Shown here piece by piece: positions 4,481 to 27,037 of a DNA stretch of 64,000 nucleotides. Both the position numbers and the translations under genes were made by a program. How positions within the stretch are numbered: position 1 is the stretch's first letter; every line of letters begins with the position of its first letter. The notes under the pieces are model-generated. The model saw only the letters and a program-made list of their open reading frames with translations. It was not told where the DNA came from and did not search any database. The stretch is taken from the NCBI GenBank assembly GCA_002339345.1, contig DDKM01000032.1, forward strand, positions 13,259 to 77,258, read 5' to 3'. The stretch is from Firmicutes bacterium UBA2598. Its GTDB lineage: Bacteria > Bacillota > PH28-bin88.

Positions 4481-4507
4481 GTTGCAAGGTATGGGGGGAG
4501 AGAAAAC

Positions 4508-4924
4508 ATGAATCAGGTGGGCAGTAAAAAAACCGCCGCAGTTGCAATTCAGATGGCCATCACAGAAACAAGGGAAGAGGAAAACGAACTGAAGGTGAAG
4601 TATCAGACCATGGGAATAAAGACGGCCGCCGTGGATTACGGTGGTGAATACATTAATGCGGTGAAAAAGATTGTGGAGCGGGCTGTAGTAGCAGCCAAAA
4701 GAGAAGGTGTGATCAAGGAAACCCATGCCGATGAAGGTGCTGTGGCCGGGGCAACCCGCGAGGCACTATCACAGATTATGCCAAAGGCAATCGGTTTAAA
4801 TGTTGGTGGAAAAATCGGTATTGCCCGGTATCGTGATCATGTAAGTGTGGCAGTTTTCTTTGGGATTGGGTTGTTACATCTTGATGAAGTCGGCATTGGC
4901 CTTGGACATCGGGCTGTCCCCTAG
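4508..4924 (+). CDS. HutP-family RNA-binding protein (hut-operon positive-regulator fold), not linked to hut genes here
   Basis: The 138-aa product carries ...[15 protein letters not shown]...[13 protein letters not shown]...[26 protein letters not shown] recognise this as the conserved core of HutP-family proteins. A strong SD (GGGGGGAGAG) precedes the ATG. Confidence 0.75.
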
Positions 4925-4937: not shown

Positions 4938-5327
4938 ATGACTGTGCGGGGTATTCGCGGGGCAATTTCCGTTGAGGAAAACAATCCCGTAGCTATATTG
5001 GCGGCGACACGTCTTTTGCTGGAAGAGATGGTAGATAGGAACGGCCTGATTATTGATGATCTGGTTAGTGTCTTTTTTACCGTTACCAGTGACTTAAATG
5101 CCGCTTTTCCGGCCTTTGCAGCAAGGGAGATGGGGTGGAAGACCGTACCTATGCTTTGCGCTACCGAAATTGATGTACCAGGAGCCCCTGGTGGTATAAT
5201 CAGGGTGTTAATTCACACCAACACACCAAAAAGTCAGGCCGAGATTCGCCATGTTTACCTGGGAGCAGCAGCTTCACTCCGTCCTGATATTGAGCCATCA
5301 CCTGGACCGGGAGGGGCCAATGGATGA
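4938..5327 (+). CDS. aroH: Chorismate mutase, AroH class
   Basis: [16 protein letters not shown]...[16 protein letters not shown]... is the AroH-type chorismate mutase signature. The start was refined to ATG 4938 behind AGGAGG at 4923-4928. Confidence 0.85.
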
Positions 5328-5893
5328 TCGTGGTGATTGACAATTACGATTCTTTCACCTACAACCTGGTGCAATACCTGCAGGAATTGGGTCGCAGGGT
5401 TGTGGTTTACCGTAATGACGCGATCACAACCCAAGGGATCATTAATATAAATGCCACCCATATAATCTTATCACCAGGGCCCTGCACTCCCAATGAGGCA
5501 GGCATATCCATGGAGGTAATTAAGACACTGGGTTCACAAATCCCCATTTTAGGCGTATGTTTAGGGCACCAATGCATTGGACAGGTTTTTGGTGCGCAGG
5601 TGGTCAGATCGCCACAGCTAATGCACGGTAAAACCTCTCGTGTTTTCCACGATGGTCGTACGATTTTCCGCAATATCGAGAATCCTTTTACTGCTACCCG
5701 CTATCACTCCCTCATCCTTAGCCCGGAAACCATCCCGCCTAACTTGGAGGTTTCTGCGGAAACACAACAAGGAGAGATCATGGCAGTGCGCCACAGGGAA
5801 TTGCCCATTGAAGGGGTGCAGTTTCATCCCGAATCAATACTAACAACCCAAGGCAGGCAGATGCTAGAGAACTTTTTACACTATTATACTTAA
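5324..5893 (+). CDS. pabA: Glutamine amidotransferase component II of anthranilate/aminodeoxychorismate synthase (TrpG/PabA)
   Basis: [26 protein letters not shown] (catalytic Cys) and GVQFHPES are class-I GATase TrpG/PabA motifs. The start codon overlaps the aroH stop. Confidence 0.9.
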
Positions 5894-5916: not shown

Positions 5917-6492
5917 ATGCCTCCTACGTTGATGGTAAGCGGCATTACCGAAATAACCAGCGTTTCAGAATTACTGTTAGTCGGCACGGGGGCTGTAGGA
6001 TTTCGGTTTATACCAGGAGCCGGGGGTGTAGACCCGGAATGGAGCAGGGAAGTAGTGCTGCAATTGCCTCCCCTGATTGTTCCTGTAGGTATTTTTGCCA
6101 ATCAACCAAAACACGAGGTGCAGGAGATCGCCAGCTTTTGTCGGCTGGATGTCTTACTTTTTATCGGAGAGGAGGTCCCTCAGTATTTTCATGGTTTTAG
6201 CCACCGCGTTATTAAGGGACTTGATTTGTGTAGCCGGGTAGAAGAGAAGGCCAAAGGTTATGCTGACAGGGTATCGGGGTTCCAATTATCTATCCCATCT
6301 GATCAACTGACCGCCCCAGATCACCTTCTGCAGCTTAAACGTCTATCAACCCGGTACCACGTAGTGGTTGCGGGCAGTCTGCCGAAACATACCATGGATT
6401 TGGCCGAGGAATCAGGGGCTGGCGGCGTTCACCTGGATTGGTCAGCATTAAAAGGTTGTAGGGAACATCTTGTATCACCTCTCAGGATATGA
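5917..6492 (+). CDS. Phosphoribosylanthranilate isomerase (TrpF)-like protein, divergent and possibly non-catalytic
   Basis: The N-terminal half aligns by eye to TrpF (VSGIT..., GAVGFRFIPG..., LPPLIVPVGIFAN...EVQEIA...LDVLLFIGEE). The usual KICGIT cysteine is Ser, and the C-terminal GG(S/T)G..FDW phosphate-binding motif is not visible. Confidence 0.55.
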   Translation: MPPTLMVSGITEITSVSELLLVGTGAVGFRFIPGAGGVDPEWSREVVLQLPPLIVPVGIFANQPKHEVQEIASFCRLDVLLFIGEEVPQYFHGFSHRVIKGLDLCSRVEEKAKGYADRVSGFQLSIPSDQLTAPDHLLQLKRLSTRYHVVVAGSLPKHTMDLAEESGAGGVHLDWSALKGCREHLVSPLRI

Positions 6493-6558
6493 TAATATCC
6501 ATAACAAGCCAATGTAGTCGGCTTGAAAAGCCACTGTAATGGGCTTGAAGTTGAACGG

Positions 6559-6599
6559 TAGGAAAATTTTAGGATGTGCAGGATGGTAGGATGGTAGGG
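6559..6599 (+). promoter_or_regulatory. Cluster of five YAGGR repeats (UAGGA x3, CAGGA, UAGGG; three AGGAUG units) in the aroF leader: candidate RNA-binding-protein site
   Basis: Read directly: tAGGA at 6559, tAGGA at 6570, cAGGA at 6579, tAGGA at 6587 and tAGGG at 6595, with start-to-start spacings of 11, 9, 8 and 8 nt. The 3' end forms a tandem aggatggt-aggatggt-aggg. Confidence 0.5.
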
Positions 6600-6625
6600 A
6601 GCATCGTTGAATGCACGATCACTCC
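6597..6625 (+). promoter_or_regulatory. Putative antiterminator hairpin of the aroF leader
   Basis: GGGAG(6597-6601) pairs with CUCC(U) (6622-6626), and AUCGU(6603-6607) pairs with ACGAU(6615-6619), with a 7-nt loop. This hairpin shares residues 6618-6625 with the terminator 5' arm, so the two structures exclude each other. Confidence 0.45.
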
Positions 6626-6646
6626 TGGTGGGGTGATTTTTGCTTT
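6617..6646 (+). terminator. Intrinsic terminator (attenuator) in the leader upstream of aroF
   Basis: GAUCACUCC (6617-6625), loop UGGU, GGGGUGAU(U) (6630-6638), followed by UUUUGCUUU. It lies about 100 nt upstream of the aroF start and inside an operon-internal untranslated region. Confidence 0.6.
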
Positions 6647-6746
6647 CACAACTTCTTCCTTTCGTCCGGCTAAAGGGGGGATTGGTTAAACTACTGGATT
6701 TAGGCCATTCTAGAAAAGCTGGAGAAAATGGCAGGGGGGAAGTGCG

Positions 6747-7775
6747 TTGATAGTTGTGATGTCTCATGGAGCAACCAGTGAACAAATTGCCGCCGTTGAA
6801 GAGCGGTTGAAAAAATCCGGGTTTGATGTCCACCGTTCTGAAGGGGTTTCCCGGACAGTTCTCGGTGTAATTGGGGAGGATACCAAAGCCAAGTTACCCA
6901 GTATGGCTCTGGAAGCCATGGCCGGTGTGGATAAGGTTGTGCCAATCTTACAGCCTTTTAAACTGGCAGGTAGGGAATTTAAACCCGATGACACTGTAAT
7001 CAAAATCGGTGATTTGCGTCTTGGGGGTCCTGATATCCACATTATAGCTGGTCCATGTGCAGTTGAAAACCGGGAACAAATGCTGGAGACAGCCTGTATT
7101 GTTAAGAACGCAGGGGCCACAATGTTACGGGGTGGGGCCTTTAAACCCCGCACTTCTCCTTACAGTTTCCAGGGACTGGAGGAAAAGGGGCTGGAAATCC
7201 TGGCCGAAGCTCGAGCCAAGACCGGCTTGCCGGTGGTAACTGAGGTAATTGATGTGAACACCGTGCCCCTTGTGGCAGAGTATGCTGATGTATTGCAGGT
7301 GGGAGCCCGGAACATGCAGAATTTTCGCTTGCTACGTGAACTTGGTCGTATCCGCAAGCCGGTAATGCTTAAGAGGGGGCCTTCTGCTACCATCGAGGAA
7401 TGGATTTTGGCGGCGGAATATATCATGAGCGGTGGGAATTATGATGTAATCTTTTGCGAGCGGGGCATCCGAACCTTTGAGGTGCATACCCGCAATACAC
7501 TAGACCTAAGTGCTGTGCCCATCCTGAAACACCTGACCCATTTACCGGTGATAGTGGACCCCAGTCACGGCACAGGACGATGGCGTCTTGTACCGGCCAT
7601 GGCCAGAGGGGGATTAGCTGTAGGGGCAGACGGGTTGATGATTGAGGTTCACCCAGATCCCAGCGAAGCCCTTTCTGATGGGCCCCAATCCTTGACGCCG
7701 GAAAACTTCTCCGGTTTAATGGATGAATTGGCCGGTATCGCCACAGTACTGGGAAGGCGGTTTCCGTCAAGCTAA
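6747..7775 (+). CDS. aroF: 3-deoxy-7-phosphoheptulonate (DAHP) synthase, type I-beta with N-terminal ferredoxin-like regulatory domain
   Basis: The TTG start gives MIVVM..., the same N-terminus as the Thermotoga-type DAHPS. Motifs [42 protein letters not shown] and VDPSH are all present. Confidence 0.92.
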
Positions 7776-7791: not shown

Positions 7792-8889
7792 ATGATCAGC
7801 AAGGTGGCCATTATCGGCATGGGTTTGATAGGGGGATCCATCGGGATGGCCTTAACCTACAGTGGAACTGTAGAACAGGTCACTGGCATCGACCAGGATA
7901 GCCATGCGCTACAATTAGCCATGGAAACAGGGGCAGTGCATACCGCGACACAGGATCTTGTAGCGGGGCTTTCCCAGGCGGATGTTGTTTTTTTGGCCCT
8001 GCCGGTTTCCACCATCATTAACTTGGGAAGCACCATTGGCCCGCTTCTACAGCCCGGCAGCGTGGTGACAGATGTGGGTAGTGTAAAACAGGTGGTTGTC
8101 CAACATATGGAGCGGATCCTCCCTCCGGGAATCAGCTATGTGGGGGGGCATCCCATGGCTGGTTCCGAACGGGTAGGTATCCAGGCTGCAGACAGGTATT
8201 TGTTGGAAAACGCAGCCTACGTCCTAACCCCAACCTCCCGTACCGATCAAAGAGCCTTACAAGTTGTGAGCCACTTGGTCCAGGTCATGGGGGCAAGACC
8301 GATCATATTGGATCCGGTCCAACATGATGAAATGGTAGCTGCTGTCAGCCACCTGCCGCATCTGGTGGCTACAGCTTTGGTACAAACAGCAGCCTTTTTG
8401 GATTCCAAGTGTCCCGGTACTCTGACACTAGCCGCCGGCGGATTCCGCGATGCCACCCGCATAGCGGGGGCTAACCCGGTGATGTGGCGGGATATTTGCT
8501 TGGCTAACCGTGGCCAGTTGTTAAAGGTAATGCAACATTTTCGGGCTACGTTAACGGAACTGGAAGCCCTGATCACAGATGGCCGAGGCGATGAGCTGAT
8601 GGAAGTCTTTCATCACGCCTGTCAGGTGCGGGCACAAATTCCAGCCAAAGCCAAAGGTTTATTACCCCCGTTGGCGGAGGTTGTGGTTACAGTGCCTGAC
8701 CGGCCAGGAATGATCGGCCACTTGGCACAGGTTTTGGGAAATGGCGGGATCAATATTACAGATATCGAAATACTTCGTGTGCGAGAAGGAGAAGGTGGAA
8801 CTATCAGATTGGGGTTTTTAACGGATCAGTCGGCAGATATGGCCGTGGGACTTTTACGTGCCAGTGGTGTTGTGGCCAAACGCAGGTAA
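7792..8889 (+). CDS. tyrA: Prephenate dehydrogenase with C-terminal ACT domain
   Basis: VAIIGMGLIGGSIG Rossmann motif, GGHPMAGSE active-site region, and an ACT-like C-terminus. The start was refined to ATG 7792 behind GGGAGGAG. Confidence 0.9.
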   Translation: MISKVAIIGMGLIGGSIGMALTYSGTVEQVTGIDQDSHALQLAMETGAVHTATQDLVAGLSQADVVFLALPVSTIINLGSTIGPLLQPGSVVTDVGSVKQVVVQHMERILPPGISYVGGHPMAGSERVGIQAADRYLLENAAYVLTPTSRTDQRALQVVSHLVQVMGARPIILDPVQHDEMVAAVSHLPHLVATALVQTAAFLDSKCPGTLTLAAGGFRDATRIAGANPVMWRDICLANRGQLLKVMQHFRATLTELEALITDGRGDELMEVFHHACQVRAQIPAKAKGLLPPLAEVVVTVPDRPGMIGHLAQVLGNGGINITDIEILRVREGEGGTIRLGFLTDQSADMAVGLLRASGVVAKRR

Positions 8890-8920: not shown

Positions 8921-10207
8921 ATGCAAAAAGTCATCCAGGCAAAAGGGGGCCTGACAGGGAAGATTACCGTCCCGGGCGATAAATCAATTTCCCACCGTGC
9001 CGCCATGTTAGGTGCTTTGGCGAGAGGCCGAACCGTAATTCACGGATTTTTAAGGGGTGCTGATTGTCTCAGCACCCTGGCCTGTCTTCGTCAATTGGGC
9101 GTGCAAATTAACGAACTCTCCACCGGTGAGATTGAGATTTGGGGGAGGGGATTGGCGTCATTGCATGAGCCATCCACGGTGCTGGATGCCGGTAATTCAG
9201 GTACCACCATGCGCTTGATGGCCGGCATCCTAGCCGGGGCCAAGGGGCTATTTGTACTGTCGGGGGACTCATCTCTCAACAGGCGCCCCATGGCCAGGAT
9301 AATCCAGCCTCTAACCATGATGGGAGGGCGGATATGGGGGCGAGATAATCATACCCTGCCGCCGCTGGCGATTTATGGGGAAAAGCTTCGTGGCATTGTC
9401 TACCAGTCACCGGTGTCCAGTGCCCAAGTCAAATCGGCAATACTCTTGGCAGGGTTGGGTGCTTCTGGTCAGACAACCATAATAGAACCAACCCGTTCAA
9501 GGGATCATACCGAGAGAATGATCCGGGGTTTTGGCGGAAAACTGTCGGTAAACGGAACAACGGTATCCCTGGCAGGACCCCAGGAATTGACTGGGTGTGA
9601 AATAACAGTCCCTGGGGACATCTCTTCTGCCGCTTTCTGGCTGGTGGCGGGTGCCATTGTACCAGGCTCCGAACTGATGGTCAGTGGAGTAGGGTTAAAT
9701 CCCACCCGCACTGGCATCGTGGATGTTCTGCAACAAATGGGTGCCCGGTTGGAGATTACCAATTACCGGGAAGTTGCCGGTGAACCCGTTGGCGATGTGA
9801 AGGTAAAAGGAGACACGACCTTACGGGGGATTACTATTGCCGGCAGCATGATTCCCCGCTTGGTGGATGAGATACCGGTGATCGCCGTAGCTGCCTTGGT
9901 AGCAAAAGGGGAAACCATTATTAAGGATGCAGCCGAGCTGCGAGTCAAGGAAAGTGATCGCTTGGCTCTCCTGGCTAGTATTCTGAAGAAAATGGGAGCA
10001 ACAGTGACGGAAAACCCCGATGGATTGGTGATTAGTGGTGGGGTGGAGCTCACGGGGATCACCGGTTTGGCACAGGGAGATCACAGGATCGCCATGGCTA
10101 CTGCCATTGCCGGGCTTATCGCACGTGGTGAAACCACGGTGTTGGATTCCCAATGTGTAGACGTCTCCTATCCGTCTTTTTGGACTACCCTGGCAGGATT
10201 GCGCTGA
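8921..10207 (+). CDS. aroA: 3-phosphoshikimate 1-carboxyvinyltransferase (EPSP synthase)
   Basis: Motifs PGDKSISHRA, LDAGNSGTTMRL, RPM.R and KESDR are canonical for AroA. Confidence 0.95.
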   Translation: MQKVIQAKGGLTGKITVPGDKSISHRAAMLGALARGRTVIHGFLRGADCLSTLACLRQLGVQINELSTGEIEIWGRGLASLHEPSTVLDAGNSGTTMRLMAGILAGAKGLFVLSGDSSLNRRPMARIIQPLTMMGGRIWGRDNHTLPPLAIYGEKLRGIVYQSPVSSAQVKSAILLAGLGASGQTTIIEPTRSRDHTERMIRGFGGKLSVNGTTVSLAGPQELTGCEITVPGDISSAAFWLVAGAIVPGSELMVSGVGLNPTRTGIVDVLQQMGARLEITNYREVAGEPVGDVKVKGDTTLRGITIAGSMIPRLVDEIPVIAVAALVAKGETIIKDAAELRVKESDRLALLASILKKMGATVTENPDGLVISGGVELTGITGLAQGDHRIAMATAIAGLIARGETTVLDSQCVDVSYPSFWTTLAGLR

Positions 10208-10218: not shown

Positions 10219-10917
10219 TTGGACTACGGGGGGGATTGGACATTGGCCTGTATCGATGGTATTGCCATTGACGGGCCAGCCGGAGCAGGCAAGAGCACTG
10301 TCGCCAAGCTGGTGGCCCGTAAGCTCTCTTATCTATATATTGACACCGGGGCCATGTACAGGGCGTTGACCTGGAAAGCTCTAAATTTGCACATGGACTT
10401 GGAAGATCCCGATCTCCTGGGTGATTTGGTAGAAAACACCGATATCCGTCTGGCCGTGGATGCAAGCGGTCAAACCAGGGTATTTTGCGACGGCAGAGAG
10501 ATTACCGATCTCATAAGATCCCCCCAAATCAACAAAGCGGTTTCCCGGGTCGCCTTGATACCAGCAGTGCGGAAACGGATGGTCGAACTGCAAAGGGCAA
10601 TGGCCGAAGGCGGTAAAATAGTGATGGACGGAAGGGATATTGGCACCCATGTCCTGCCCGAAGCGGCAAACAAGTTCTTTCTGACTGCCAGTAGCCAGGA
10701 GAGGGCTATGCGTCGTTATCGCGAACTTAAGGAAAAGGGACATGATGTGACTTTGGAGGAAGTGCTTGCAGAAGTAAAAGAAAGGGATTGGCAGGATTCT
10801 ACACGGAGTGCTGCACCCCTGGCAAAGGCAGAAGGGGCTATTGAAATAGATACCACTGGTCTTTCACCAGATGAGGTGGCCAACTTGGTCATCAGGCATG
10901 TCACCAGGGGGTGTTAG
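10219..10917 (+). CDS. cmk: Cytidylate kinase
   Basis: IAIDGPAGAGKSTVAK P-loop, then YLYIDTGAMYRA, GRDIGT and the C-terminal RD..D..R motif. The TTG start is uncertain; TTG 10243 is an alternative. Confidence 0.9.
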   Translation: MDYGGDWTLACIDGIAIDGPAGAGKSTVAKLVARKLSYLYIDTGAMYRALTWKALNLHMDLEDPDLLGDLVENTDIRLAVDASGQTRVFCDGREITDLIRSPQINKAVSRVALIPAVRKRMVELQRAMAEGGKIVMDGRDIGTHVLPEAANKFFLTASSQERAMRRYRELKEKGHDVTLEEVLAEVKERDWQDSTRSAAPLAKAEGAIEIDTTGLSPDEVANLVIRHVTRGC

Positions 10918-10918
10918 G

Positions 10919-11509
10919 TTGTTTTATCGATTTGCCAGGGGACTTTTTCGCCTTTTTTTTAATATTTGTTGCCAGTGGAGGATTATCGGGGGCGAAAACG
11001 AGCCCGTTGAAGGGCCTGTAATTGTCATCTGCAATCATGTGGGCAACTGGGATCCCATTGTGCTGGGCGTAGCCCTTAAACGACAGGTACGGTACATGGC
11101 AAAGGAAGAACTGTTCCGATGGCCAGTGTTAGGCCAGTTAATCAAGAGCCTAGGTGCGTTCCCCATTAAGCGTGGTCAATCAGACCGGGCAGCCATGAAA
11201 ACGGCCCAGGAAATAATTACCCAAGGACAGATGCTGGGTATGTTCCCTGAGGGGAGCCGTAGCCGCACGGGTGGATTGCGTCCATTCAAGGCTGGGGCTG
11301 CGGTTCTGGCCCTGCGGACTGGGGCAACCGTACTGCCGGTGGCACTGGTGGGAACACAGCGTATATTTAGGCAGGGATGGTTCCGTCCTTTTCAGGTACG
11401 AATTGGTGCTCCCATCATGGTGAATAAACCAGATGTAGTGGATTCCGCAAAGGTAGAAGAACTTACCGCCAGATTTTATACTGCCATTGAAAACCTTTTG
11501 AGCCAATAA
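10919..11509 (+). CDS. plsC: 1-acyl-sn-glycerol-3-phosphate acyltransferase
   Basis: NHVGNWDP (the HX4D acyltransferase motif) and FPEGSRSRTG are present. I chose TTG 10919 because AGGGGGTG sits 6 nt upstream. The ORF-track start at 10871 would overlap cmk by 47 nt. Confidence 0.85.
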   Translation: MFYRFARGLFRLFFNICCQWRIIGGENEPVEGPVIVICNHVGNWDPIVLGVALKRQVRYMAKEELFRWPVLGQLIKSLGAFPIKRGQSDRAAMKTAQEIITQGQMLGMFPEGSRSRTGGLRPFKAGAAVLALRTGATVLPVALVGTQRIFRQGWFRPFQVRIGAPIMVNKPDVVDSAKVEELTARFYTAIENLLSQ

Positions 11510-11620
11510 AAATTGGCGAATTTCTTTTTTTGGAAGGATTTTCGGCAATTTTAACGAAGGATAAATAATGTTTGACATTTCGCATTAGAATACAACTTAT
11601 AGGCTGTTCATGATGGGAAG

Positions 11621-13606
11621 ATGCACGTGGAAATAATTAAGGCAAAGCATGCTGGGTTCTGTTTCGGTGTGCGCAGGGCAATCCGGCAGGCAGAAGAAAC
11701 GATGAGTTCAAGTAAAGGACCTTTCTATTCCTTGGGGCCTTTAATTCATAACCCACAAGTGGTTAAAGATCTCGCGGCCAAAGGTATTATGCCTGTGGAT
11801 GACCTGGAAAAACTTCCGGCCGGTACAGTAATTATCCGATCCCATGGAGTATCGCCGGCAGTACTGGACCAAATAAAACATCATGGATCACAGGTGTCAG
11901 ATGCCACCTGCCCATTTGTGCGGAGGGCCCAGGAAAAGGCGCGATTTATGGCGGAACAAGGATTTCGGGTGGTAGTGGTTGGCGAACCGGCTCACCCGGA
12001 GGTACTTGGGTTACTAGGCTGGGCTGGCCAGGATGCCATAGTTATCGAAACCGAGGCTCAAGCCAAAGGATTACCCAGTTACGATAAAGTCGCCCTTGTT
12101 GCCCAAACAACTCAACCAGCAGACAAGCTTGTCAGAATTGCTGATATTATAAGAGGTAAAACTAACGAACTGGTTGTATGTGATACCATCTGTGATGCCA
12201 CCCGCCAGAGACAGGAGGCTACCGCAATACTGGCAGGCCTGGTAGATGTCATGATTGTGGTGGGGGGTAAGAACAGCGCCAATACCCGCAAACTAGCGGA
12301 ACTCAGCAGTCAAAAGGGGACTCCTACTTACCACATTGAGGACGCTAGTGATTTGAAGGCCCAAATGTTGGTAGGAGCCGAGAAAGTGGGAATCTCAGCT
12401 GGAGCTTCTACTCCAGATTGGATTATTGAGGAGGTTGTAAGAAAAATGACTGAAATGGAAAAGGAAATAACCACGGGAGAACAGGCAGCACCGACTGATG
12501 TCAAACGGGATATGCCAACAGAAACCATGTCCTTGGAAGATGGCATCAGAAATATCCGGAGAGGTGAAATAGTCGTTGGCACAGTGGTGCAAATCAAAAA
12601 TGATGAAGTGGTAGTGGATGTTGGTGGCAAATCCGAGGGTATCATTCCCTTAAATGAGCTGTCCTACCGGAGCATTTCAGATCCTAGTGAACTGCTGAAG
12701 GTAGGTGACAGCATAGAAGTACAGGTGTTGAGAACGGAAAATGAGGAAGGGCATCCAGTCTTATCCAAAAAGAGAGTGGACCGTAAATTAGCATGGGACA
12801 AGCTTGAACAATACCACCGGGAAGGACATATCATTACCGCTAAGGTTGTGGATGTGGTAAAGGGCGGCTTGTTGGTGGATGTGGGAATTAACGGCTTTGT
12901 TCCGGCTTCCCAAGTGGAGCGGGGTTATGTGGAAAATCTTGACGTTTATTTAGGGCGGGAACTGCGCCTTAAAGTCATTGAATTGAATCGCGCCAAGAAC
13001 AAAGTTGTCTTATCACAGAAGGTAGTGCTGGAAGAGGAGCTTACCAGAAAACGCCAGCAGACTTGGGAAAATCTCGAGGTTAACCAAATTCGCAAAGGAA
13101 TAGTGCGTCGTCTGACCAATTTTGGCGCCTTTGTGGATATCGGCGGTGTAGACGGCCTATTACATGTGTCAGAGATTGCCTGGGGCAGAATCAACCATCC
13201 CCAGGAAGTGCTCAGTGAGGGTCAGGAAATCGATGTGGTAGTCCTTAATGCCGATCCAGTTACCGGAAAGGTTTCCCTTGGCAGAAAACAGATTCTGCCA
13301 AATCCATGGCATACAGCAGCGGAACGCTACCCGGTAGGTGCAATCGTTCAGGGGAGGGTGTTGCGTACAGCGCCCTTTGGAGCATTTGTAGAGCTTGAAC
13401 CAGGTATTGAAGGGTTGGTTCATGTTTCACAATTGGCTGATCGCCACGTGGCCAAGCCGGAGGACGTGGTTTCAGTAGGCGAGATTATATCGGTAAAGGT
13501 ACTTAGTGTGGATCAAGGGGCGCAACGGATGAGCCTAAGCCTTAGAGAAGCTGGTGGTAAATCACAACTTAGTCCGGCAGTTGCCGAGGAAGCAGGAAAT
13601 GAATAA
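11621..13606 (+). CDS. ispH: Bifunctional 4-hydroxy-3-methylbut-2-enyl diphosphate reductase (IspH/LytB) fused to ribosomal protein S1 repeats
   Basis: The N-terminal ~280 aa carry IspH motifs (AGFCFGVRRA, HNP.VV, ATCPFV, SANT.KL). The C-terminal ~370 aa contain four S1-type OB repeats (GTVVQI..., ITAKVVDVVKGGLLVD, KGIVRRLTNFGAFVDIGG.DGLLHVSE, QGRVLRTAPFGAFVELEPGIEGLVHVSQ). Confidence 0.9.
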   Translation: MHVEIIKAKHAGFCFGVRRAIRQAEETMSSSKGPFYSLGPLIHNPQVVKDLAAKGIMPVDDLEKLPAGTVIIRSHGVSPAVLDQIKHHGSQVSDATCPFVRRAQEKARFMAEQGFRVVVVGEPAHPEVLGLLGWAGQDAIVIETEAQAKGLPSYDKVALVAQTTQPADKLVRIADIIRGKTNELVVCDTICDATRQRQEATAILAGLVDVMIVVGGKNSANTRKLAELSSQKGTPTYHIEDASDLKAQMLVGAEKVGISAGASTPDWIIEEVVRKMTEMEKEITTGEQAAPTDVKRDMPTETMSLEDGIRNIRRGEIVVGTVVQIKNDEVVVDVGGKSEGIIPLNELSYRSISDPSELLKVGDSIEVQVLRTENEEGHPVLSKKRVDRKLAWDKLEQYHREGHIITAKVVDVVKGGLLVDVGINGFVPASQVERGYVENLDVYLGRELRLKVIELNRAKNKVVLSQKVVLEEELTRKRQQTWENLEVNQIRKGIVRRLTNFGAFVDIGGVDGLLHVSEIAWGRINHPQEVLSEGQEIDVVVLNADPVTGKVSLGRKQILPNPWHTAAERYPVGAIVQGRVLRTAPFGAFVELEPGIEGLVHVSQLADRHVAKPEDVVSVGEIISVKVLSVDQGAQRMSLSLREAGGKSQLSPAVAEEAGNE

Positions 13607-14663
13607 CCATCCTCCGCAGCGGGAGCAGCGGAAGCTTGATCATATCAAATACTCCCTGGAACTGGTGGATGGGCCCAGTACCAGTGGTTTTGAAGAAATT
13701 CATTTAATTCATCAGGCTACCCCGGAACTAGACCTTTCGGATATCGATCCATCGATCGAATTATTCGGAAAACGGTTGAGTTTTCCATTAGTAATCAACG
13801 CATTAACCGGCGGTGTTGCGGAAGCAAAGGCCATCAATCATTCACTGGCAAGGGTATCCTCCCGGTTAGGAGTGGCCATGGCCGTAGGATCTCAGGCTGC
13901 CGCTCTGGAGAATACTGACCTGCAGGAAACCTTTCAGGTGGCCAGAAAAGCAAACCCGAGGGGCGTGTTAATGGCAAATGTTAGTGCCCTTACCTCCTAT
14001 AAAGATGCCCGTAGAGCAGTGGAAATGCTTGAAGCAGACGCGCTGCAAGTACACTTGAACGTACCACAGGAACTGGCCATGGGTGAGGGAGACCGTCATT
14101 TTCGAGGGGTGCTCCAAAATATCGGGGAACTGGTACAAAATGTAGGTGTTCCGGTTGTTGTGAAGGAAGTAGGATTTGGCATTTCTAGGGAAACAGCGGG
14201 TAAGCTTTTTGGCCGCGGTGTGCGTTACCTTGATCTCGGTGGACAGGGGGGCACCAATTTTATAGCCATTGAACACCGCCGAGCAGGCCATGGATATCAA
14301 ATTCCCCTGGACTGGGGAATTTCCACCGCAGCCAGTTTGGTCGAGGTAAGCAGTCTCCGCCTTCCTATGTTTTTGATTGCCAGTGGCGGAATTAGGCATC
14401 CCCTGGATATGGTTAAGGCGATGGCTCTGGGAGCAGGACTTATTGGGGTTGCTGGGCCCTTCCTACGTACATTAATTACACAGTCCGAGGATAGTCTACA
14501 GAAACAGTTGCAATGGTGGCGTCAATGCTTTATAGTCTTAATGCTGATGGTTGGGGCCTCTCGGGTTGCGGATCTCGCCCATTGCCCACTGGTTATTTAT
14601 GGTAGATTAAGGGAATGGATGCAACAACGGGGTATCACTATGACGGAGTATGGTAAAAGGTAA
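13599..14663 (+). CDS. fni: Type 2 isopentenyl-diphosphate delta-isomerase (FMN-dependent)
   Basis: RK.DHI N-terminus, VGSQ, VVKEVGFG and the SGGIR motif are present. The start was refined to ATG 13599, which overlaps the ispH-S1 stop in ATGAATAA. Confidence 0.9.
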   Translation: MNNHPPQREQRKLDHIKYSLELVDGPSTSGFEEIHLIHQATPELDLSDIDPSIELFGKRLSFPLVINALTGGVAEAKAINHSLARVSSRLGVAMAVGSQAAALENTDLQETFQVARKANPRGVLMANVSALTSYKDARRAVEMLEADALQVHLNVPQELAMGEGDRHFRGVLQNIGELVQNVGVPVVVKEVGFGISRETAGKLFGRGVRYLDLGGQGGTNFIAIEHRRAGHGYQIPLDWGISTAASLVEVSSLRLPMFLIASGGIRHPLDMVKAMALGAGLIGVAGPFLRTLITQSEDSLQKQLQWWRQCFIVLMLMVGASRVADLAHCPLVIYGRLREWMQQRGITMTEYGKR

Positions 14664-14675
14664 AACACAATCGCG

Positions 14676-16153
14676 ATAGGGAGCGGCTAATAGCCGCCGA
14701 CCCTCCCACACCACCTAGCAAGCGGGTCATACTCATGCGGTTCGTCAAGATTAACGGGCTATCTCTTAGACAGACTTGCCACACCCAGTCTTGCTAGATA
14801 GTTATTGGTAAGGGTCAACTAAGAATGGGGCTGGCTATTGGAGGTTCTCCAGTAGCCCTTTCTTGTATTGGCGAATCAAGAGAACCGGCTCTTGGTGCAG
14901 TTTTTCCAGCTCTTCAATCGCTACTATACTGAACTCCGTTATGCTTACTGCATCAACCCCGCCCGCTCCGCGGTTCTCCCTGACTTTCTCCCAGAGGCTA
15001 ATCTTAGGTTGGTCGGGTGATACACCTTGTCGATCAGTGAATGGACCTTGGTCTTTTGGGTCGTGCCTACTGGGTCCATTGTCATCAGTCTCCTCCGTCC
15101 AAGTTCCGGGTCTTTCACTTAGGGAACTATCCTTCCCTTGCAACATACTCACTGCTTCCTCTGGATTTTCGGCCTCAGTTAAGCGAATCGCCTTCCCCTC
15201 ACAGGCTACCTTTTGGGTAACCTTGAGCCGCCCCTTCTTCCAAGCGGTCCCGGCGTTTCTGTTGTTCGCCGGTTCGAGTGCTATTCGATTCTCCGACTCC
15301 TCGCATCGCTTGGGCATTCACTTCGAGGTTACCTTATAGAATGCCTTACCGGTTATTGTGCTTGTCTGAACAGGACGGACATGCACAAACTACCTCCATC
15401 CCGGCTATCTTTACCCACCGGCCCATTTCGGTGCATCAACCGGACGATACGAGGCCTCCGTGGGTCACGCAGTTATCTTCCGTACCATGCCGCCCGCACA
15501 CACCTTGGTACGACGGGTGGACTAGAACGCCTTCGCCTCCATAGTGCAGGCTCGACCTTGCCCCGTCTTTGGCCGACCGGTTCATCTTTGGGGCAGCCCC
15601 CTTTGATTACGGCCTGGTACTTCTCCTCAAGTCCTCCGGACCCCACCTCGCGATGGGCACCCTGCCTTCCGGGTGTTACCCGGCCCCCGAGGCATTACCC
15701 CCGGATTTGGATATGGGTCTCCTAGTCCGAGACCCAGTGGGATTTTAACCCACCTGACAACTACGCTGCCACGCGCACATTATGGCCTCTGCTGACTTTT
15801 GGCAGTTCAGCCGTACATTACTGCACGGGTTGCCCCTTCAAAGTTCATTTCCACGGCGTACCTGCCAGATCCCCCCGGGTAAGCGTGTATGCTTTCATCC
15901 CATGTACCCGCCGTATCTACTGCATGGGGTTCGGGCAGTGTTGGATTTCGTCGTGTGTTACAAACCCGTCCGCCTCAAGGCAGCCTCCCATAGGGTTTTG
16001 GTGCATCGGGCCGGGACTTTGCCGCCGACTTCCTGCACCACCCACCTGCGTTGGGTCCCCACACCTCGGACACCCTTGCCTTTGGCTAATGGTTCCCACT
16101 GCCAGGCCCATAGCGGACTTTCACCGCCAAACCTACACCCATGCCGGGCGCAC
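14676..16153 (-). mobile_element. Group II intron relic (ribozyme 5' domains plus truncated maturase/RT ORF), antisense to the flanking genes
   Basis: The minus strand begins GUGCGCCCGGCAUGGGUG... at 16153, the group II 5' consensus GUGCG. GC-rich structured RNA follows with no credible sense ORF. It contains an N-terminal RT fragment. The 3' boundary is tentative: ...CCCUAU at 14676 after a hairpin at 14677-14707. Confidence 0.75.
14835..15317 (-). pseudogene. Truncated group II intron reverse transcriptase/maturase (only about 160 aa: N-terminal extension plus RT-0 region)
   Basis: ...ISLWEKVRENRGAGGVDAVSITEF...EELEKLHQE resembles the RT-0/RT-1 start of intron-encoded proteins (..NKGA.GVDG.T..EF...L..L...L). 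The ORF then stops, and RT domains 2-7, X and En are absent. Confidence 0.75.
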
Positions 16154-16163
16154 CACTAGCTTC

Positions 16164-16194
16164 AACAGGCGGTAATAATCGCCTGTTTTCATTT
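16164..16194 (+). terminator. Rho-independent terminator-like hairpin, probably the original fni terminator displaced by the intron
   Basis: AACAGGCG (16164-16171), 8-nt loop, CGCCUGUU (16180-16187), then UUC AUUU. It sits 10 nt beyond the intron 5' junction. Confidence 0.55.
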
Positions 16195-16262
16195 GTATAT
16201 GAAGAAAAAAGATGGGCATTCTAGAGTTAATAATTCTTATTTTACCAGAGAGGAGCAGGGAT

Positions 16263-17042
16263 ATGGCCGGATTTCCCATCGGCATGATCGCCCTCCTTGG
16301 ACTAGCTGCCCTTATCTATTTTGGGTTAGCCCAGAGGGTGCTGGACAGAATGTACTTAAATGATAAAGTGGCCATTGGCATCTTGGCAGCCATAGCAATT
16401 GGCAGTTTTATCAACATACCACTGTTCACCGGGCGCATGGATATATCCATCAATGTTGGTGGTGGATTAATTCCCATTGGACTTGCTATCTATGTGTTGA
16501 CCAGGGCCGGAACACCCATGGAAAAATGGCGGGCAATTGGGGCCATCATTGCGACTGCCATAACGGTATTTTTGATTAACGGGTTGCTTTTCACCGATGA
16601 CCCGTGGCAAGGAGGACGGGACTGGTTGGATCCGTTGCTGGTATATCCTCTGGCAGCAGGCACCATTGCCTATATCGTTGGGAGGTCAAGGCGGAGCGCT
16701 TTCATTTCAGCTACCATTGGGGTACTGTTACTTGATTTGTACGATGCATTTTATCTCGGAACCACTGGAACACCAGGCACGGTAGCCATCGGCGGGGCGG
16801 GGGCCTTTGACACCATTTTGTTATCGGGTGTGGTGGCAGTCTTATTAGCTGAGGTTATGGGGGAAACCATGGAGCGCCTGCAGGGCGGGCCAAAGCCGGA
16901 AGGGCATGCACCAAATCTTCTGCGACAACTGTCTGATCTACAAGGCCACCAACATTTAGCCCAACCCGCTAAGAAAGAACTACCTAAGAACGCCGGGGAT
17001 GAAGTAACTGATGAAGGGAGGCGTAACGGCCATGCGGAATAA
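16263..17042 (+). CDS. DUF1614-family integral membrane protein
   Basis: Polytopic membrane protein starting MAGFPIGMIALLGLAALIYFGLAQRVLDRMYL..., which I recognise as DUF1614-like. The start was refined to ATG 16263 behind GAGAGGAGCAGGG. Confidence 0.7.
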   Translation: MAGFPIGMIALLGLAALIYFGLAQRVLDRMYLNDKVAIGILAAIAIGSFINIPLFTGRMDISINVGGGLIPIGLAIYVLTRAGTPMEKWRAIGAIIATAITVFLINGLLFTDDPWQGGRDWLDPLLVYPLAAGTIAYIVGRSRRSAFISATIGVLLLDLYDAFYLGTTGTPGTVAIGGAGAFDTILLSGVVAVLLAEVMGETMERLQGGPKPEGHAPNLLRQLSDLQGHQHLAQPAKKELPKNAGDEVTDEGRRNGHAE

Positions 17043-18225
17043 CTGGCGGATATCCTTAGGAATATGGGTGCTGGTTTTGGGTATAACCATATTGGTCGGC
17101 GGTTTGGTGGGACCGGAAACCAAACCCGTGATCGATATGCCGGACTTAGACTTTTTCCCGGACGAGGTTTCCGATGGCCGTTACTTTACTGTAGAAGACG
17201 AAAACGGTCGGGAATTAGATAAGACAGCGCGTTTTGTGTATGTAGGTGACGAATTTATCACTCAGGACAATTATCATTACCGCGTGAAAAGGGTGGATGA
17301 CCGCAGGGCTGTGGCAGAATTGTTGGGTCGGGTGGATTTAGTGTCTGCAACGGAAGATGTCCAACCAGTATGGTCATTGGTGAGTTCAAAGCTGTTGCCC
17401 GTGCAGAATCAGCCTCGCAACTTACTAGCCGTATACAATACCCATAGTGCCGAATCCTATGTTCCTACAGACGGTTCAGACAGCATCCCAGGCGGAGGTG
17501 GTATCTTTAAGGTAGGGGATGTCTTTACCGCCAAACTACAGGAACTTGGTGTGGATGTGGCCTATGACAAAACACCCCATGAACCACATGATGCCAATGC
17601 CTATAAACGTTCCCGGCGCACGGCCATACAGTTGCTAAGCCGCGGTCCCGCTGCCATCATTGACATTCACAGGGATGGGGTACCCGATCCAGATTTTTAT
17701 ACCGCTAAAATCAGTAACCGTGATGCCACACAAATCCGTCTTGTGGTAGGCCGGCAAAACCAAAATATGCAGGCCAATCTCGACTTTGCCAAAAGAATTA
17801 AGGCCCAGGCGGATCAGATCCATCCTGGATTGATCAAAGGAATATTTATGGCGCGTGGGAACTACAACCAGGATCTTTCCCCGCGGTCAATTCTGATTGA
17901 GGTAGGCACCCACACAAATAAGAGAGAAATGGCCCAGGAAGGAGCGGCCCTTTTTGCCGATGTGATTACCCAGGTAATGGGTCTTGGTGGCCGGGCCGGG
18001 GTAACACCAGGGGGACCTGGCCCGGTGGGTGCTACACGGATAGGGGGCGACTGGTTCGGTGTATTGTGGGTTTTGGGTATCTTGTTGGTTGGTGGTGGAG
18101 CGTTTTTGCTCATCAGCACCGGCAGTTGGCAGGGTGCTGTGGATAAACTGCGTCAATTCTCCACAAAGGAATGGGCGAATGCTCTGAGACGGAGGAAGGG
18201 CGACAAAAAACCGGACAATCAGTAG
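17032..18225 (+). CDS. spoIIP: Stage II sporulation protein P
   Basis: N-terminal TM segment, then LLAVYNTHSAESY, IDIHRDG and ILIEVG (amidase-3-like SpoIIP core). The start was refined to ATG 17032. Confidence 0.85.
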   Translation: MRNNWRISLGIWVLVLGITILVGGLVGPETKPVIDMPDLDFFPDEVSDGRYFTVEDENGRELDKTARFVYVGDEFITQDNYHYRVKRVDDRRAVAELLGRVDLVSATEDVQPVWSLVSSKLLPVQNQPRNLLAVYNTHSAESYVPTDGSDSIPGGGGIFKVGDVFTAKLQELGVDVAYDKTPHEPHDANAYKRSRRTAIQLLSRGPAAIIDIHRDGVPDPDFYTAKISNRDATQIRLVVGRQNQNMQANLDFAKRIKAQADQIHPGLIKGIFMARGNYNQDLSPRSILIEVGTHTNKREMAQEGAALFADVITQVMGLGGRAGVTPGGPGPVGATRIGGDWFGVLWVLGILLVGGGAFLLISTGSWQGAVDKLRQFSTKEWANALRRRKGDKKPDNQ

Positions 18226-18319
18226 CTCCGGAAGAATTTGGTCCGATAGTTGATGATCGACCGATTTTTAGCGGCGTAATCGCCGCTTTTTATTGCCGCT
18301 ACAGAATAGGGAGGAATCA

Positions 18320-18802
18320 ATGAAGGTAATTTACTATTGTTATGGTGGTTCCCATTCTTCCGTAACGGCTGCTGCCATTCACCTGGGACTGTTAAAGGAA
18401 AGGCCTTCATACCACCAGTTGCTTGATATCCCCTACTTTGATTACCAGACAAAATACCAGCATGGGATTATCCGGTGCTTGGGGGTGGATGGGAATGGTA
18501 CGGAAGTGTTTTTTGTGGGACGACGGAACTATAAAGCTTTTGAACAACTAGTTCTTTCAATAGCAGACCTGCTGGGTACGCCAAGGTCGGAACTGATATT
18601 GGTGAACACGCTCCCATGCACAAACTGGCTCATGGTAATCGGCGGATTGCTTTCCCGTGGGCTTGGGTTGGTAAGCTTGGGGCGGCCAATCGTTGCTTGG
18701 GGCACTATCATGGCCTTTCCCCGTTTCACCAGCTTGGTTAAAGAAGTTAAAGGGCTGGTTTCCGTCCATTTAAGCTGCAAGGAAAGCAGGCCTAACGAAT
18801 GA
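18320..18802 (+). CDS. DUF3189-family protein (paralog 1)
   Basis: MKVIYYCYGGSHSSVTAAAIHLGLL... The start was refined to ATG 18320 behind GGGAGG. It is paralogous to the next gene. Confidence 0.7.
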   Translation: MKVIYYCYGGSHSSVTAAAIHLGLLKERPSYHQLLDIPYFDYQTKYQHGIIRCLGVDGNGTEVFFVGRRNYKAFEQLVLSIADLLGTPRSELILVNTLPCTNWLMVIGGLLSRGLGLVSLGRPIVAWGTIMAFPRFTSLVKEVKGLVSVHLSCKESRPNE

Positions 18803-19245
18803 TTGTCATTTACTGTTGTGTTACTGGCGTACATGATGCACAAATAGCTGCTGGAATACACCTGGGCATCTTGCAACCGGATTATGGTGCAACCCGCATA
18901 CAATTTAAGCACATGGAGGGTTACAACAATTATGCCTACTACCAAACGGGCGGAATCCGTGTAGTGGGTAGAGATGGCAGTGGACGGACCGTCGCAACCC
19001 TGGGAGTGGCCAGGGATATGGATGTTGTCTTGGAGACCGTCAACAGCTTGGGTCGCATATGGGGTAAAGAAAAAGTGGATATCCACCTGGTTGATGTCGG
19101 TAGACCTTATTGGAAGACCATGATCTGGTCGCTGTGTCACAAGCTAAAGCTTCCAAACCTGGGGAATTGCCTCATGGATGGGCACATACGAGGGGAATTT
19201 ACTCGGATTGCCAAACTGGTTGAGAAGTACCAATCCCTTGACTAG
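18799..19245 (+). CDS. DUF3189-family protein (paralog 2)
   Basis: MIVIYCCVTGVHDAQIAAGIHLGIL...GGIRVVGRDGSGRTV shares an N-terminal motif with the upstream gene. Start and stop overlap in ATGA. Confidence 0.7.
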   Translation: MIVIYCCVTGVHDAQIAAGIHLGILQPDYGATRIQFKHMEGYNNYAYYQTGGIRVVGRDGSGRTVATLGVARDMDVVLETVNSLGRIWGKEKVDIHLVDVGRPYWKTMIWSLCHKLKLPNLGNCLMDGHIRGEFTRIAKLVEKYQSLD

Positions 19246-19257
19246 CCGGAATGGATA

Positions 19258-20643: not shown

Positions 20644-20660
20644 TTCTTAAGGAGGTTGCC

Positions 20661-22004: not shown

Positions 22005-22031
22005 AATATCGCCATGGGAGGAGAAGTGGGA

Positions 22032-22622
22032 ATGTTAGCCTTCGGTTTGATCATCCTTGCATACGTGTTGGGGTCCCTTCCCATAGGATACCTTGTCGGC
22101 AAGCACCTGCGGGGAATTGATATCCGGCAGCATGGCAGCGGAAACATCGGTACTACCAATGCCTTCCGCATCATGGGTACAGGGCCAGGAATTGTAGTTC
22201 TGGTTGGCGATTTGCTGAAAGGAATGTTACCGGTTCTATTCAGCCAATACGCTACTGGCCCCAACATTGCACTTCTGGCTGGAATTGCTGCCATAGCAGG
22301 TCATAACTGGTCATTGTTTCTCGGTTTCAGCGGTGGTAGGGGAGTGGCCACTGCCGCAGGTGTAATATTTGCCCTTGCACCTTCGGTAATCCTGGTAGCG
22401 TTCTTGATTTGGGTAGCTGTTGTGGGTCTTTCCCGCTATGTTTCCCTAGGTTCAATTGTTGCCGCAATTTCTGTGCCTCTGTTAATGATCATCTTTGCCA
22501 AACCGTGGTCTTATACGTTTTTTGGAATCATTGCTGCACTTTTCATCATCATCAGACACCGTCCCAACATCCTGCGGTTACTGAAGGGGACTGAAAACAG
22601 GCTGGGTGGGCATACAAAATAA
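22032..22622 (+). CDS. plsY: Glycerol-3-phosphate acyltransferase PlsY
   Basis: MLAFGLIILAYVLGSLPIGYLVGK...GSGNIGTTNA..R..G motif. The start was refined to ATG 22032, 8 nt after GGGAGGAG. Confidence 0.9.
   Translation: MLAFGLIILAYVLGSLPIGYLVGKHLRGIDIRQHGSGNIGTTNAFRIMGTGPGIVVLVGDLLKGMLPVLFSQYATGPNIALLAGIAAIAGHNWSLFLGFSGGRGVATAAGVIFALAPSVILVAFLIWVAVVGLSRYVSLGSIVAAISVPLLMIIFAKPWSYTFFGIIAALFIIIRHRPNILRLLKGTENRLGGHTK

Positions 22623-25747: not shown

Positions 25748-27037
<1,290 letters not shown>

Follow-up and report, generated by a model that had tools for sequence, protein, structure and literature searches.

HutP is a textbook protein with one known function, histidine utilization in Bacillus. 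We describe a hutP-like gene, and an RNA repeat element associated with its relatives, in a cluster of aromatic amino-acid genes from Firmicutes bacterium UBA2598. The stretch of DNA analyzed, which we call the window, comprises 64,000 nucleotides (nt) of contig DDKM01000032.1. We discuss the gene order at the locus, the family and predicted fold of the protein, its neighbors in related genomes, and the repeated NAG triplets that recur in the leaders of genes for aromatic amino-acid biosynthesis and uptake. We then weigh a model in which the protein would repress these genes by binding the repeats, and compare it with known regulatory systems.

Gene Organization at the Locus

The hutP-like gene is separated from aroH by 13 nt, counted from its stop codon to the aroH ATG, and the genes downstream lead into a noncoding stretch that carries the repeats and an intrinsic terminator (Table 1). 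The first gene downstream of this leader and terminator (6559–6648) is aroF, and tyrA, aroA, cmk, plsC, and ispH-rpsA come after it. For tyrA, the listed open reading frame (ORF) begins at 7723; the ATG at 7792, which lies past the aroF stop, is probably the start.

A preliminary description of this DNA had placed a HutP-family ORF 13 nt ahead of aroH-pabA, with no hut genes in the 64 kb and with a UAG-repeat/terminator leader ahead of aroF-tyrA-aroA, and these statements hold. A Pfam scan of the window ORFs of at least 250 aa found no histidase, urocanase, imidazolonepropionase, or formiminoglutamase, and the triplets of the leader span 6559 to 6597, followed by the hairpin and its U-rich tail. 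The description had also called the gene between pabA and the leader trpF-like, which stands in part: there is a match to the phosphoribosylanthranilate isomerase family (PRAI), but it is weak, covers only the N-terminal half of the profile, and falls well below every NCBIfam TrpF cut-off. This ORF may encode no functional isomerase. The amidotransferase gene pabA is present in the window with no trpE, trpD, trpC, trpB, or trpA nearby.

Table 1. Genes and leader features at the hutP-like locus of the window
Feature	Position	Strand	Basis
hutP-like gene, proposed RNA-binding regulator, 138 aa	4508–4924	+	Pfam HutP PF09021
aroH, monofunctional AroH-type chorismate mutase	4938–5327	+	Pfam CM_1 152 bits; TIGR01796 equivalog 137 bits
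pabA/trpG-type glutamine amidotransferase, overlaps aroH stop	5324–5893	+	Pfam GATase 209 bits; TIGR00566 260 bits
Divergent PRAI (TrpF)-like ORF, last gene ahead of leader	5917–6492	+	Pfam PRAI 26.5 bits
Candidate promoter of aroF leader: TTGTAT, 17 nt, TG-n-TAATAT (extended −10)	6470–6498	+	Read from the sequence
Noncoding stretch, 254 nt	6493–6746		
Upstream pair of degenerate NAG triplets (UAG at 6559 and 6570), at the site I place of other leaders	6559–6578	+	
Site II, proposed protein-binding site: CAGGAUGG-UAGGAUGG-UAG with purine tail GGAG	6579–6601	+	Fits consensus exactly
Candidate antiterminator hairpin, shares 6617–6625 with terminator	6597–6626	+	Pairing read from the sequence
Intrinsic terminator: GAUCACUCC-UGGU-GGGGUGAUU with UUUGCUUUCA tail	Hairpin 6617–6638, U-rich tail to 6648	+	Terminator scan
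aroF, DAHP synthase (DAHP, the 7-phosphate of 3-deoxy-D-arabino-heptulosonate), N-terminal ferredoxin-like domain, TTG start	6747–7775	+	DAHP_synth_1 270 bits; DAHP_snth_FXD 75 bits; NF006421 502 bits
tyrA, prephenate dehydrogenase, C-terminal ACT domain	7792–8889	+	Pfam PDH_N, PDH_C, ACT; NF005107 332 bits
aroA, 5-enolpyruvylshikimate-3-phosphate (EPSP) synthase	8921–10207	+	Pfam EPSP_synthase 411 bits

A HutP Fold with a Different Pocket

The 138-aa product matches the Pfam HutP family over essentially the full profile (positions 2–128 of 128; 171.1 bits, E 1.6e-50, cut-off 25), which bears out the family assignment of the preliminary description; B. subtilis HutP itself scores 111 bits. An AlphaFold2 model of the monomer has a pLDDT (predicted local distance difference test) of 92.1 and a pTM (predicted template-modeling score) of 0.86. 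When this model was compared with PDB structures by Foldseek, ranks 1 to 10 were all HutP (1VEA, 1WPV, 1WMQ, 4H4L, 4OK9, and 1WRN), with template-modeling (TM) scores of 0.61–0.78 overall and 0.72–0.78 for the best of them, 15–20% identity, and E down to 9e-9, and the first non-HutP fold had a TM of at most 0.44. On its profile match and its modeled structure, the protein belongs to the HutP family in the broad sense and has the HutP fold.

The kinship is visible only through Pfam, hhalign, and the predicted structure. Neither phmmer with the single protein as query nor a profile of 19 sequences retrieved a HutP chain from the PDB sequences; hhalign against B. subtilis HutP (a query sequence 100% identical to 1VEA) gave E 7e-4 and 23% identity. 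The NCBIfam HutP equivalog NF002838, which B. subtilis HutP matches at 253 bits against a cut-off of 155, had no match to the window protein at any E up to 10. Judged by sequence, then, the window protein is not a HutP orthologue.

Residue by residue, 8 classical HutPs were compared with 14 members of the new clade, in an alignment of about 20% identity that may contain local shifts of one residue. Five residues are invariant in all 8 classical proteins, H73, H77, H138, R88, and R98, which are reportedly the Mg2+ and L-histidine ligands (Kumarevel et al. 2005). The window protein has G, G, and L in place of the three histidines, a deleted loop in place of R88, and L in place of R98. Across the 14 members, H73 is mostly G or A and also Q, H77 is G except for an E in one distant member, L stands at H138 in every member, the loop with R88 is missing from all, and a hydrophobic residue takes the place of R98; three loops are shorter than in the classical proteins. 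Since the classical histidine and Mg2+ residues are lost, the pocket must differ in the new clade, which carries a strongly conserved sequence signature of its own.

This clade, 66–87% identical across Moorella, Thermincola, the Desulfotomaculum group, Pelotomaculum, Syntrophomonas, and Ruminiclostridium, is the bulk of the HutP family. At 90% identity the protein collection holds about 6,560 clusters of the new clade and about 770 of classical HutP (Bacillaceae), so that the characterized HutP is the minority. The preliminary description had proposed a paralog re-tasked from histidine to aromatic amino acids; the aromatic linkage described below agrees with the second half of that proposal, but with clades of these sizes the direction of the change may be reversed.

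A Near-Invariant Pairing with Chorismate Mutase

A scan of one genome per species yielded 80 loci with close relatives of the hutP-like gene, drawn from Moorella/Neomoorella, Thermincola, the Desulfotomaculum group, Pelotomaculum, Syntrophomonas, Syntrophaceticus, Ruminiclostridium, Petroclostridium, and many metagenome-assembled genomes (MAGs). Synteny was judged by tblastn with the window proteins, and the 73 loci with at least 500 nt past the hutP-like gene were evaluable. In 69 of these 73, an AroH chorismate mutase gene lies on the same strand no more than 400 nt downstream; where it does not, aroF is directly 3' of the hutP-like gene in 3 of 4 loci. The linkage of this clade to aro genes, on which the preliminary description had made its proposal depend, is thus widespread. 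The gap between the two genes is often −1 to 20 nt. The genes past aroH vary, from aroF-tyrA-aroA (as in the window) to a complete trp operon or cmk-plsC-ispH. As the next genes change and the pairing with aroH stays, the invariant unit is the hutP-like gene plus aroH.

More distant members of the family have other neighbors. In a metagenome contig (L082, 1–7954), a distant HutP-family gene of 40% identity at 6001–6453 comes right after genes for tyrosine decarboxylase, an amino-acid permease, a Na+/H+ antiporter, and tyrosyl-tRNA synthetase, and is followed by a terminator and a class I/II aminotransferase gene whose leader has irregular UAG/AAG triplets. This third kind of genomic context, once more connected with an aromatic amino acid, hints at aromatic ligands elsewhere in the HutP family. 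Another distant member lies between a malic enzyme and an ABC transporter and has no evident link to aromatic metabolism.

A Conserved 8-nt Repeat Element in Aromatic Leaders

The triplets of the window leader start at 6559, 6570, 6579, 6587, and 6595, with spacings of 11, 9, 8, and 8 nt. The spacing of 8 to 11 nt given in the preliminary description is therefore accurate for the window, but the period of the unit conserved among genomes is strictly 8 nt, with an AYGG spacer, and only the last three window triplets (6579–6597) match that unit. The consensus drawn from 24 aroF leaders is G-YAG-NAYGG-YAG-NAYGG-YAG-G-R-R, which we call site II. Among these 24 sequences the A and G of the triplets, together with spacer positions 2 (A) and 4 and 5 (GG), are invariant or nearly so. 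Site II is present upstream of full-length aroF in 23 of 24 related loci, in addition to the window; the exception is the AT-rich locus L001.

Two further features flank site II. A strict NAGNAYGG unit, site I, occurs 10–76 nt 5' of site II in 19 of the 24 leaders (20 units, vs 1.2 expected), and an intrinsic terminator, usually CACUCC...GGGGUG with a U-run, lies 15–45 nt 3' of site II. The window terminator has a folding energy of about −11 to −15 kcal/mol. The candidate promoter of the window leader was passed over by a consensus promoter scan because its −35 box is weak; similar TGnTAAnAT boxes stand immediately 5' of site I in L035, L041, L042, and L052.

The element is conserved, strand-specific, and gene-specific. 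In 1.12 Mb, the strict three-unit pattern was found 26 times in the sense and 2 times in the antisense orientation, and 2.5 ± 1.6 times in dinucleotide shuffles. For the two-unit motif, 46 instances lie ahead of aroF, 14 ahead of aroH, and 9 at the leaders or starts of hutP; elsewhere its frequency is that of the antisense background. A profile hidden Markov model (HMM) built from 18 leaders of other genomes has a single match in the 64 kb of the window, at 6577–6641 on the forward strand (E 9.5e-10), and it also detects instances outside its training set 5' of hutP in L003 and L006. Units together with a terminator are found in the leader of hutP itself in L005, L006, and L028. Between hutP and aroH, units are found in 15 of 69 loci; in 11 loci they start 13–36 nt ahead of the aroH start and overlap its Shine-Dalgarno (SD) sequence and sometimes its AUG. 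Rfam 15 gave no match in window positions 6490–6750 at E up to 10, and none at gathering scores in 10 motif-bearing loci.

Near-units are also seen at the start of the hutP-like gene. In the window (4481–4527) the sequence reads AAGGUAUGGGGGGAGAG...AUGAAUCAGGUGGGCAGU, where a near-unit stands ahead of the SD and codons 3–6 contain CAG-N5-CAG, and in several relatives the codons for the conserved N-terminal residues E/H-Y-G-S read GAGUAYGGYAG, which is the two-unit motif exactly. Weak autoregulation, or merely a coding constraint, could account for this. At the other end of the leader (6650–6746), a pyrimidine-rich stretch just past the terminator, ACUUCUUCCUUUCGUCC, can pair with the aroF SD region, GGCAGGGGGGAAGU. 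The SD window of aroF is 92% paired in the minimum free energy (MFE) structure, with z-scores across leaders that are not significant, and CCUCC...GGAGG hairpins lie at the equivalent place in L019, L045, L049, L064, and L076. Such a hairpin would resemble the SD-sequestering hairpin of TRAP-controlled trpE.

TRAP (trp RNA-binding attenuation protein) is an oligomer that reads repeated NAG triplets in aromatic leaders; it acts through a choice between terminator and antiterminator and through SD occlusion, and its regulon mixes biosynthesis with transport. TRAP-type arrays, each with 9–15 GAG/UAG triplets at 2–3 nt spacers and then a terminator, are present in the aroH-trpE spacers of nine loci (L003, L004 at about 8925–9010, L007, L009, L011, L012, L016, L036, and L070) from Moorella/Neomoorella, Thermincola, Desulfofundulus, and several MAGs. 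In these same loci the aroF leader further downstream carries the 8-nt units. Because both kinds of repeat occur in the same loci, two different repeat systems co-exist, and these Clostridia appear to use TRAP for tryptophan alongside the 8-nt-repeat system. A tblastn search with B. subtilis MtrB found nothing in the window or in the 80 loci (16 kb each), the best E being 3.6.

Genes Downstream of the Element in Metagenomes

Approached from the RNA side, a scan of metagenome contigs for the exact site II pattern gave 120 stretches with 124 matches, which were classified. Non-tandem matches number 45, and 12 of them have a U-run within about 100 nt. In 11 of these the downstream gene is aroF (L111, L170, and L177) or belongs to an ABC transporter whose binding protein is of family PF04392 (L103, L109, L182, and L187) or to a DctP/Q/M transporter (L094, L097, L183, and L185); for the twelfth, L166, no downstream gene was identified. 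A further non-tandem match precedes the prephenate dehydratase gene pheA (L141), and another lies directly after hutP and ahead of aroH-aroF-tyrA (L184). One match flagged as tandem precedes hutP (L171). In L182 and L187 a HutP-like gene of 57–62% identity ends 80–110 nt 5' of the element, with no aroH there, an order that copies the hutP-terminator-target layout of B. subtilis.

Linkage of the clade to the repeat leader, on which the preliminary description had also made its proposal depend, is likewise seen in other genomes: the element recurs upstream of aroF, aroH, hutP, pheA, and transporter operons. Its downstream genes suggest a regulon of DAHP synthase, EPSP synthase, chorismate mutase, both branches after prephenate, uptake systems, and the regulator itself.

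Two kinds of match differ in layout from the aroF leaders or in genetic context. In the DctPQM leaders (L097, 451–600 on the reverse strand, and also L094, L183, and L185), site II is followed by two successive terminator-like hairpins, GCCGGCC...GGCCGGC with a U-run and then UACUCC-CGCC-GGAGUA with a U-run, a layout unlike that of the aroF leaders. Many GC-rich environmental contigs (L089, L093, L095, L113, L136, L205, and about 70 others) hold perfect tandem arrays of 8-nt units such as (GCAGGACG)n, (GTAGGACG)n, and (GCAGGATG)n, often paired with an inverted copy some tens of nt away; their match to site II is accidental, and neither aro nor hutP genes lie near them.

A Model of Repression by RNA Binding

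The reading that we favor, and judge reasonably probable, is that the window protein is a ligand-activated RNA-binding repressor with a HutP fold, which controls an aromatic amino-acid regulon in a TRAP-like manner, by attenuation and by translation block. That the protein is the factor binding the repeats, together with its oligomeric state, its ligand, and termination upon binding, we infer from the evidence above. The comparative evidence supports the proposal of the preliminary description that the protein may act on the aroF leader as an attenuation protein, a functional analogue of TRAP.

In this model, transcription would start just past the trpF-like gene or read through from hutP-aroH-pabA, and RNA polymerase would enter a leader with (Y)AG-NAYGG units at an 8-nt period. 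When the effector, most likely tyrosine and/or phenylalanine, is abundant, an oligomer would bind the three units at 6579–6597. By analogy with HutP, this oligomer would be a hexamer with three sites on each face, and the site I cluster that lies upstream in most genomes would be bound as well. Binding would hold the purine-rich 3' end of site II, preventing its pairing with the CACUCC arm of the terminator; the terminator (6617–6648) would then form and aroF-tyrA-aroA would go untranscribed. When the effector is scarce, the free repeats would pair with the terminator arm, forming the antiterminator (6597–6626) and permitting readthrough. In other genomes, units over the aroH ribosome-binding site would give translational repression, and units ahead of hutP itself would give autoregulation; pheA and the uptake transporters would be controlled from units ahead of them too.

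Several features point to repression as the direction of control. Where sites cover the ribosome-binding region of aroH, their occupation should keep translation from starting; one element serves both biosynthesis and uptake genes, as in regulons controlled by an end product; and the 3' part of site II, together with the purine tail, is able to pair with the 5' arm of the terminator, which is rich in pyrimidines. In the window, the candidate antiterminator would pair GGGAG (6597–6601) with CUCCU (6622–6626) and AUCGU (6603–6607) with ACGAU (6615–6619). When leaders were folded without the 3' arm of the terminator, the MFE structure paired site II with the 5' arm in the window and in about 15 of 19 leaders. 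Syntrophomonas-type leaders have different terminators, and there the GAUGG spacer pairs with a CCAUC arm. A terminator/antiterminator switch is a reasonable model. The layout of 3 plus 2–3 RNA units would, by indirect analogy, fit a homohexamer of the HutP type (D3, with two RNA-binding faces), and the 8-nt period with its conserved spacer suggests that more of the RNA is read than by HutP. As for the effector, the regulon points to tyrosine and/or phenylalanine: it takes in the common pathway, tyrA, pheA, and transporters, and trp is handled separately.

A number of observations weigh against this reading. The antiterminator pairing is no better than in composition-matched shuffles (duplex energy; mean z about 0, none below −1.64), and RNAalifold predicted no pairs on a MAFFT alignment of 19 leaders, in which the pairing of G-runs with C-runs slips register. 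With the pairing unsupported statistically, the logic of termination rests on analogy and on the SD-overlapping sites of other genomes. The window leader has no strict site I unit, and no motif lies ahead of aroH in the window. At the level of the protein, the classical HutP residues are gone, so that it may sense no amino acid at all; the nearly universal presence of aroH next to the gene, in many cases with translational coupling, could stem from a partnership between the proteins instead. Finally, 79 of the 124 metagenome matches are simple tandem arrays of an 8-nt unit in GC-rich contigs that are unrelated, so that the exact pattern is not specific at metagenome scale, and only the non-tandem matches with an associated terminator were informative.

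Alternative Explanations

The same protein and sites could follow the logic of HutP itself, with a ligand-bound antiterminator or activator that turns aroF-tyrA-aroA on, perhaps in response to a precursor or to starvation. The sole characterized member of the family works in this way (PMC2425495, PMC12591593), the order of regulator, terminator, and target in L182, L187, and L184 copies that of hutP, terminator, and hutH, and the pairing that repression requires is the one without statistical support. We nevertheless hold this explanation to be unlikely. Site II of HutP lies inside the terminator stem, whereas here both clusters lie 15–45 nt upstream of the hairpin; the units over the aroH SD and AUG in 11 loci are placed where binding can hardly activate. 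Placing biosynthesis and uptake genes under one element fits end-product repression, and an intermediate that induced DAHP synthase would create positive feedback.

Alternatively, the protein may act mainly with AroH, as a regulatory or scaffolding partner, and the repeats may be bound by another factor. The adjacency in 69 of 73 loci, with gaps that suggest translational coupling, speaks for such a role, as do the loss of the classical ligand residues and the persistence of the pair in hutP-aroH-cmk loci with no aroF or motif nearby. The motif, however, is also found downstream of HutP-like genes without an aroH (L182 and L187) and precedes hutP itself in L003, L005, L006, L028, and L171. Two clusters of NAG triplets are what the HutP fold is known to recognize (PMC2425495), and among the genes conserved in these loci there is no second candidate for an RNA-binding protein. 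We regard a main role at the protein level as quite improbable.

Partnership with AroH and RNA binding might also be joined in an enzyme-coupled sensor, a complex of the HutP-fold hexamer with the AroH trimer in which RNA binding would track enzyme occupancy (chorismate/prephenate flux) or phenylalanine or tyrosine bound at the interface. The three-fold symmetry of the hexamer, the trimeric AroH, the near-obligatory and often translationally coupled neighbor, and the loss of the HutP-type pocket suggest the idea, to which we likewise assign a low probability.

It is very improbable that the hutP-like gene is a bystander and that the repeats are TRAP or CsrA sites or part of a T-box, riboswitch, or leader peptide: TRAP too reads (G/U)AG triplets, CsrA reads GGA and the window units contain AGGA, and a 16-codon ORF ending in Trp spans the window repeats, but TRAP-type leaders occur separately in the same loci, no mtrB homologue was found in the window or the loci, GGA is not conserved in the units, the window and 10 motif-bearing loci have no Rfam match, and the small ORF has no SD and a single aromatic codon. 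Each of these candidates was rejected on its own terms. For CsrA, the invariant GG runs into a C or U, in 24 of 24 sequences in unit 2 and 22 of 24 in unit 3, and then into AG, and GGA arises in the units only where the free position after NAG is G; for TRAP, the HutP fold, the 8-nt unit period, and the failure to find MtrB speak against it; for a T-box or riboswitch, no Rfam covariance model matched the leaders; and for a leader peptide, the small ORF through the repeats has one Trp codon and lacks an SD.

Other Features of the Window

The only riboswitch match of the window is an S-adenosylmethionine (SAM) riboswitch (RF00162, 92 bits) at 25550–25666 on the forward strand. It sits upstream of genes for a Cys/Met pyridoxal phosphate (PLP)-dependent enzyme (25760–27037) and an alpha/beta hydrolase, and a hom-thrC-thrB-lysC-like cluster follows at 28831–33347. 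Two group II intron domain matches (RF02001, 84 bits; RF01998, 45 bits) lie at 15768–16055 on the reverse strand, between a gene for a flavin mononucleotide (FMN)-dependent dehydrogenase and a DUF1614 gene; among ORFs of at least 250 aa, there is no large reverse-transcriptase ORF near them. A 754-aa ORF at 34685–36949 on the forward strand has no Pfam match at E up to 1e-5.

Implications

If the model of repression is correct, a function would be gained for the large set of proteins annotated as "HutP family protein" in Clostridia, acetogens, sulfate reducers, and syntrophs, and a long-missing regulator of the common shikimate pathway and of the phenylalanine and tyrosine branches would be identified in these organisms. 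TRAP-like control would have been invented a second time, independently, and would co-exist with TRAP in one locus. In addition, the RNA operator, (Y)AG-NAYGG at an 8-nt period, would be usable for regulon prediction, including that of two transporter families of unknown specificity.

Comparison with Known Systems

Control of aroF, tyrA, and pheA by T-boxes or by regulators of the TyrR/PheR type has the same targets and presumably the same physiological purpose. The new element differs from these systems in being a single-stranded repeat, neither a structured RNA that binds a tRNA or ligand nor a DNA operator.

The closest likeness in logic is to TRAP. The proposed system would share with it an oligomer that reads NAG triplets in aromatic leaders, a terminator/antiterminator choice, SD occlusion, and a regulon of biosynthesis and transport genes. 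The folds are unrelated, and TRAP uses 9–11 triplets with 2–3 nt spacers, in contrast to 3 + 3 units at an 8-nt period. TRAP targets tryptophan; the new system would target the common pathway and the phenylalanine and tyrosine branches. The additional TRAP sites over the ribosome-binding sites of other genes are matched in related loci, though not in the window. The two regulators may also share the same ancestral neighborhood: the gene order of the window, with cmk, ispH-rpsA, der, gpsA, and spoIVA through to a ubiE-type methyltransferase and a polyprenyl synthetase (10219–25442 and 38165–50986), is reminiscent of the B. subtilis chromosomal region with mtrA-mtrB (TRAP) and the aroFBH-trp supraoperon.

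The likeness in fold and RNA recognition is to HutP of B. subtilis (1VEA, 1WMQ, 1WPV; NF002838). The window protein shares its Pfam family, fold, and size, and in both systems the regulator gene stands at the head of the controlled genes. HutP binds two clusters of three XAG triplets on the two faces of its hexamer; in Bacillus the clusters are separated by a linker of 12–17 nt, the spacers within them are 4 nt long and sequence-independent, and site II lies within the terminator (PMC2425495). NAG triplets in two linker-separated clusters next to an intrinsic terminator are thus common to both. The differences begin with the protein, which is only about 23% identical, does not match NF002838, has five invariant residues replaced or deleted, and has three shorter loops. 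The HutP operator has a 7-nt period and free spacers, and the new element an 8-nt period and a conserved N-A-Y-G-G spacer; the site II of HutP is inside the hairpin, whereas both clusters of the new element are upstream of it. HutP heads hutHUIG(M) and, through RNA binding that depends on L-histidine, prevents termination; the targets of the new clade are genes of aromatic biosynthesis and uptake, for which repression is predicted.

A 2025 review treats HutP solely as the antiterminator of Bacillus hut (PMC12591593), and full-text searches of literature outside subscription journals found no account that connects proteins of the HutP family with chorismate mutase, with the shikimate pathway, or with aromatic amino acids. 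The fold and the principle of the triplet repeat are known from these earlier systems; the operator and the regulon appear to be new, and the regulatory sign is probably new as well.

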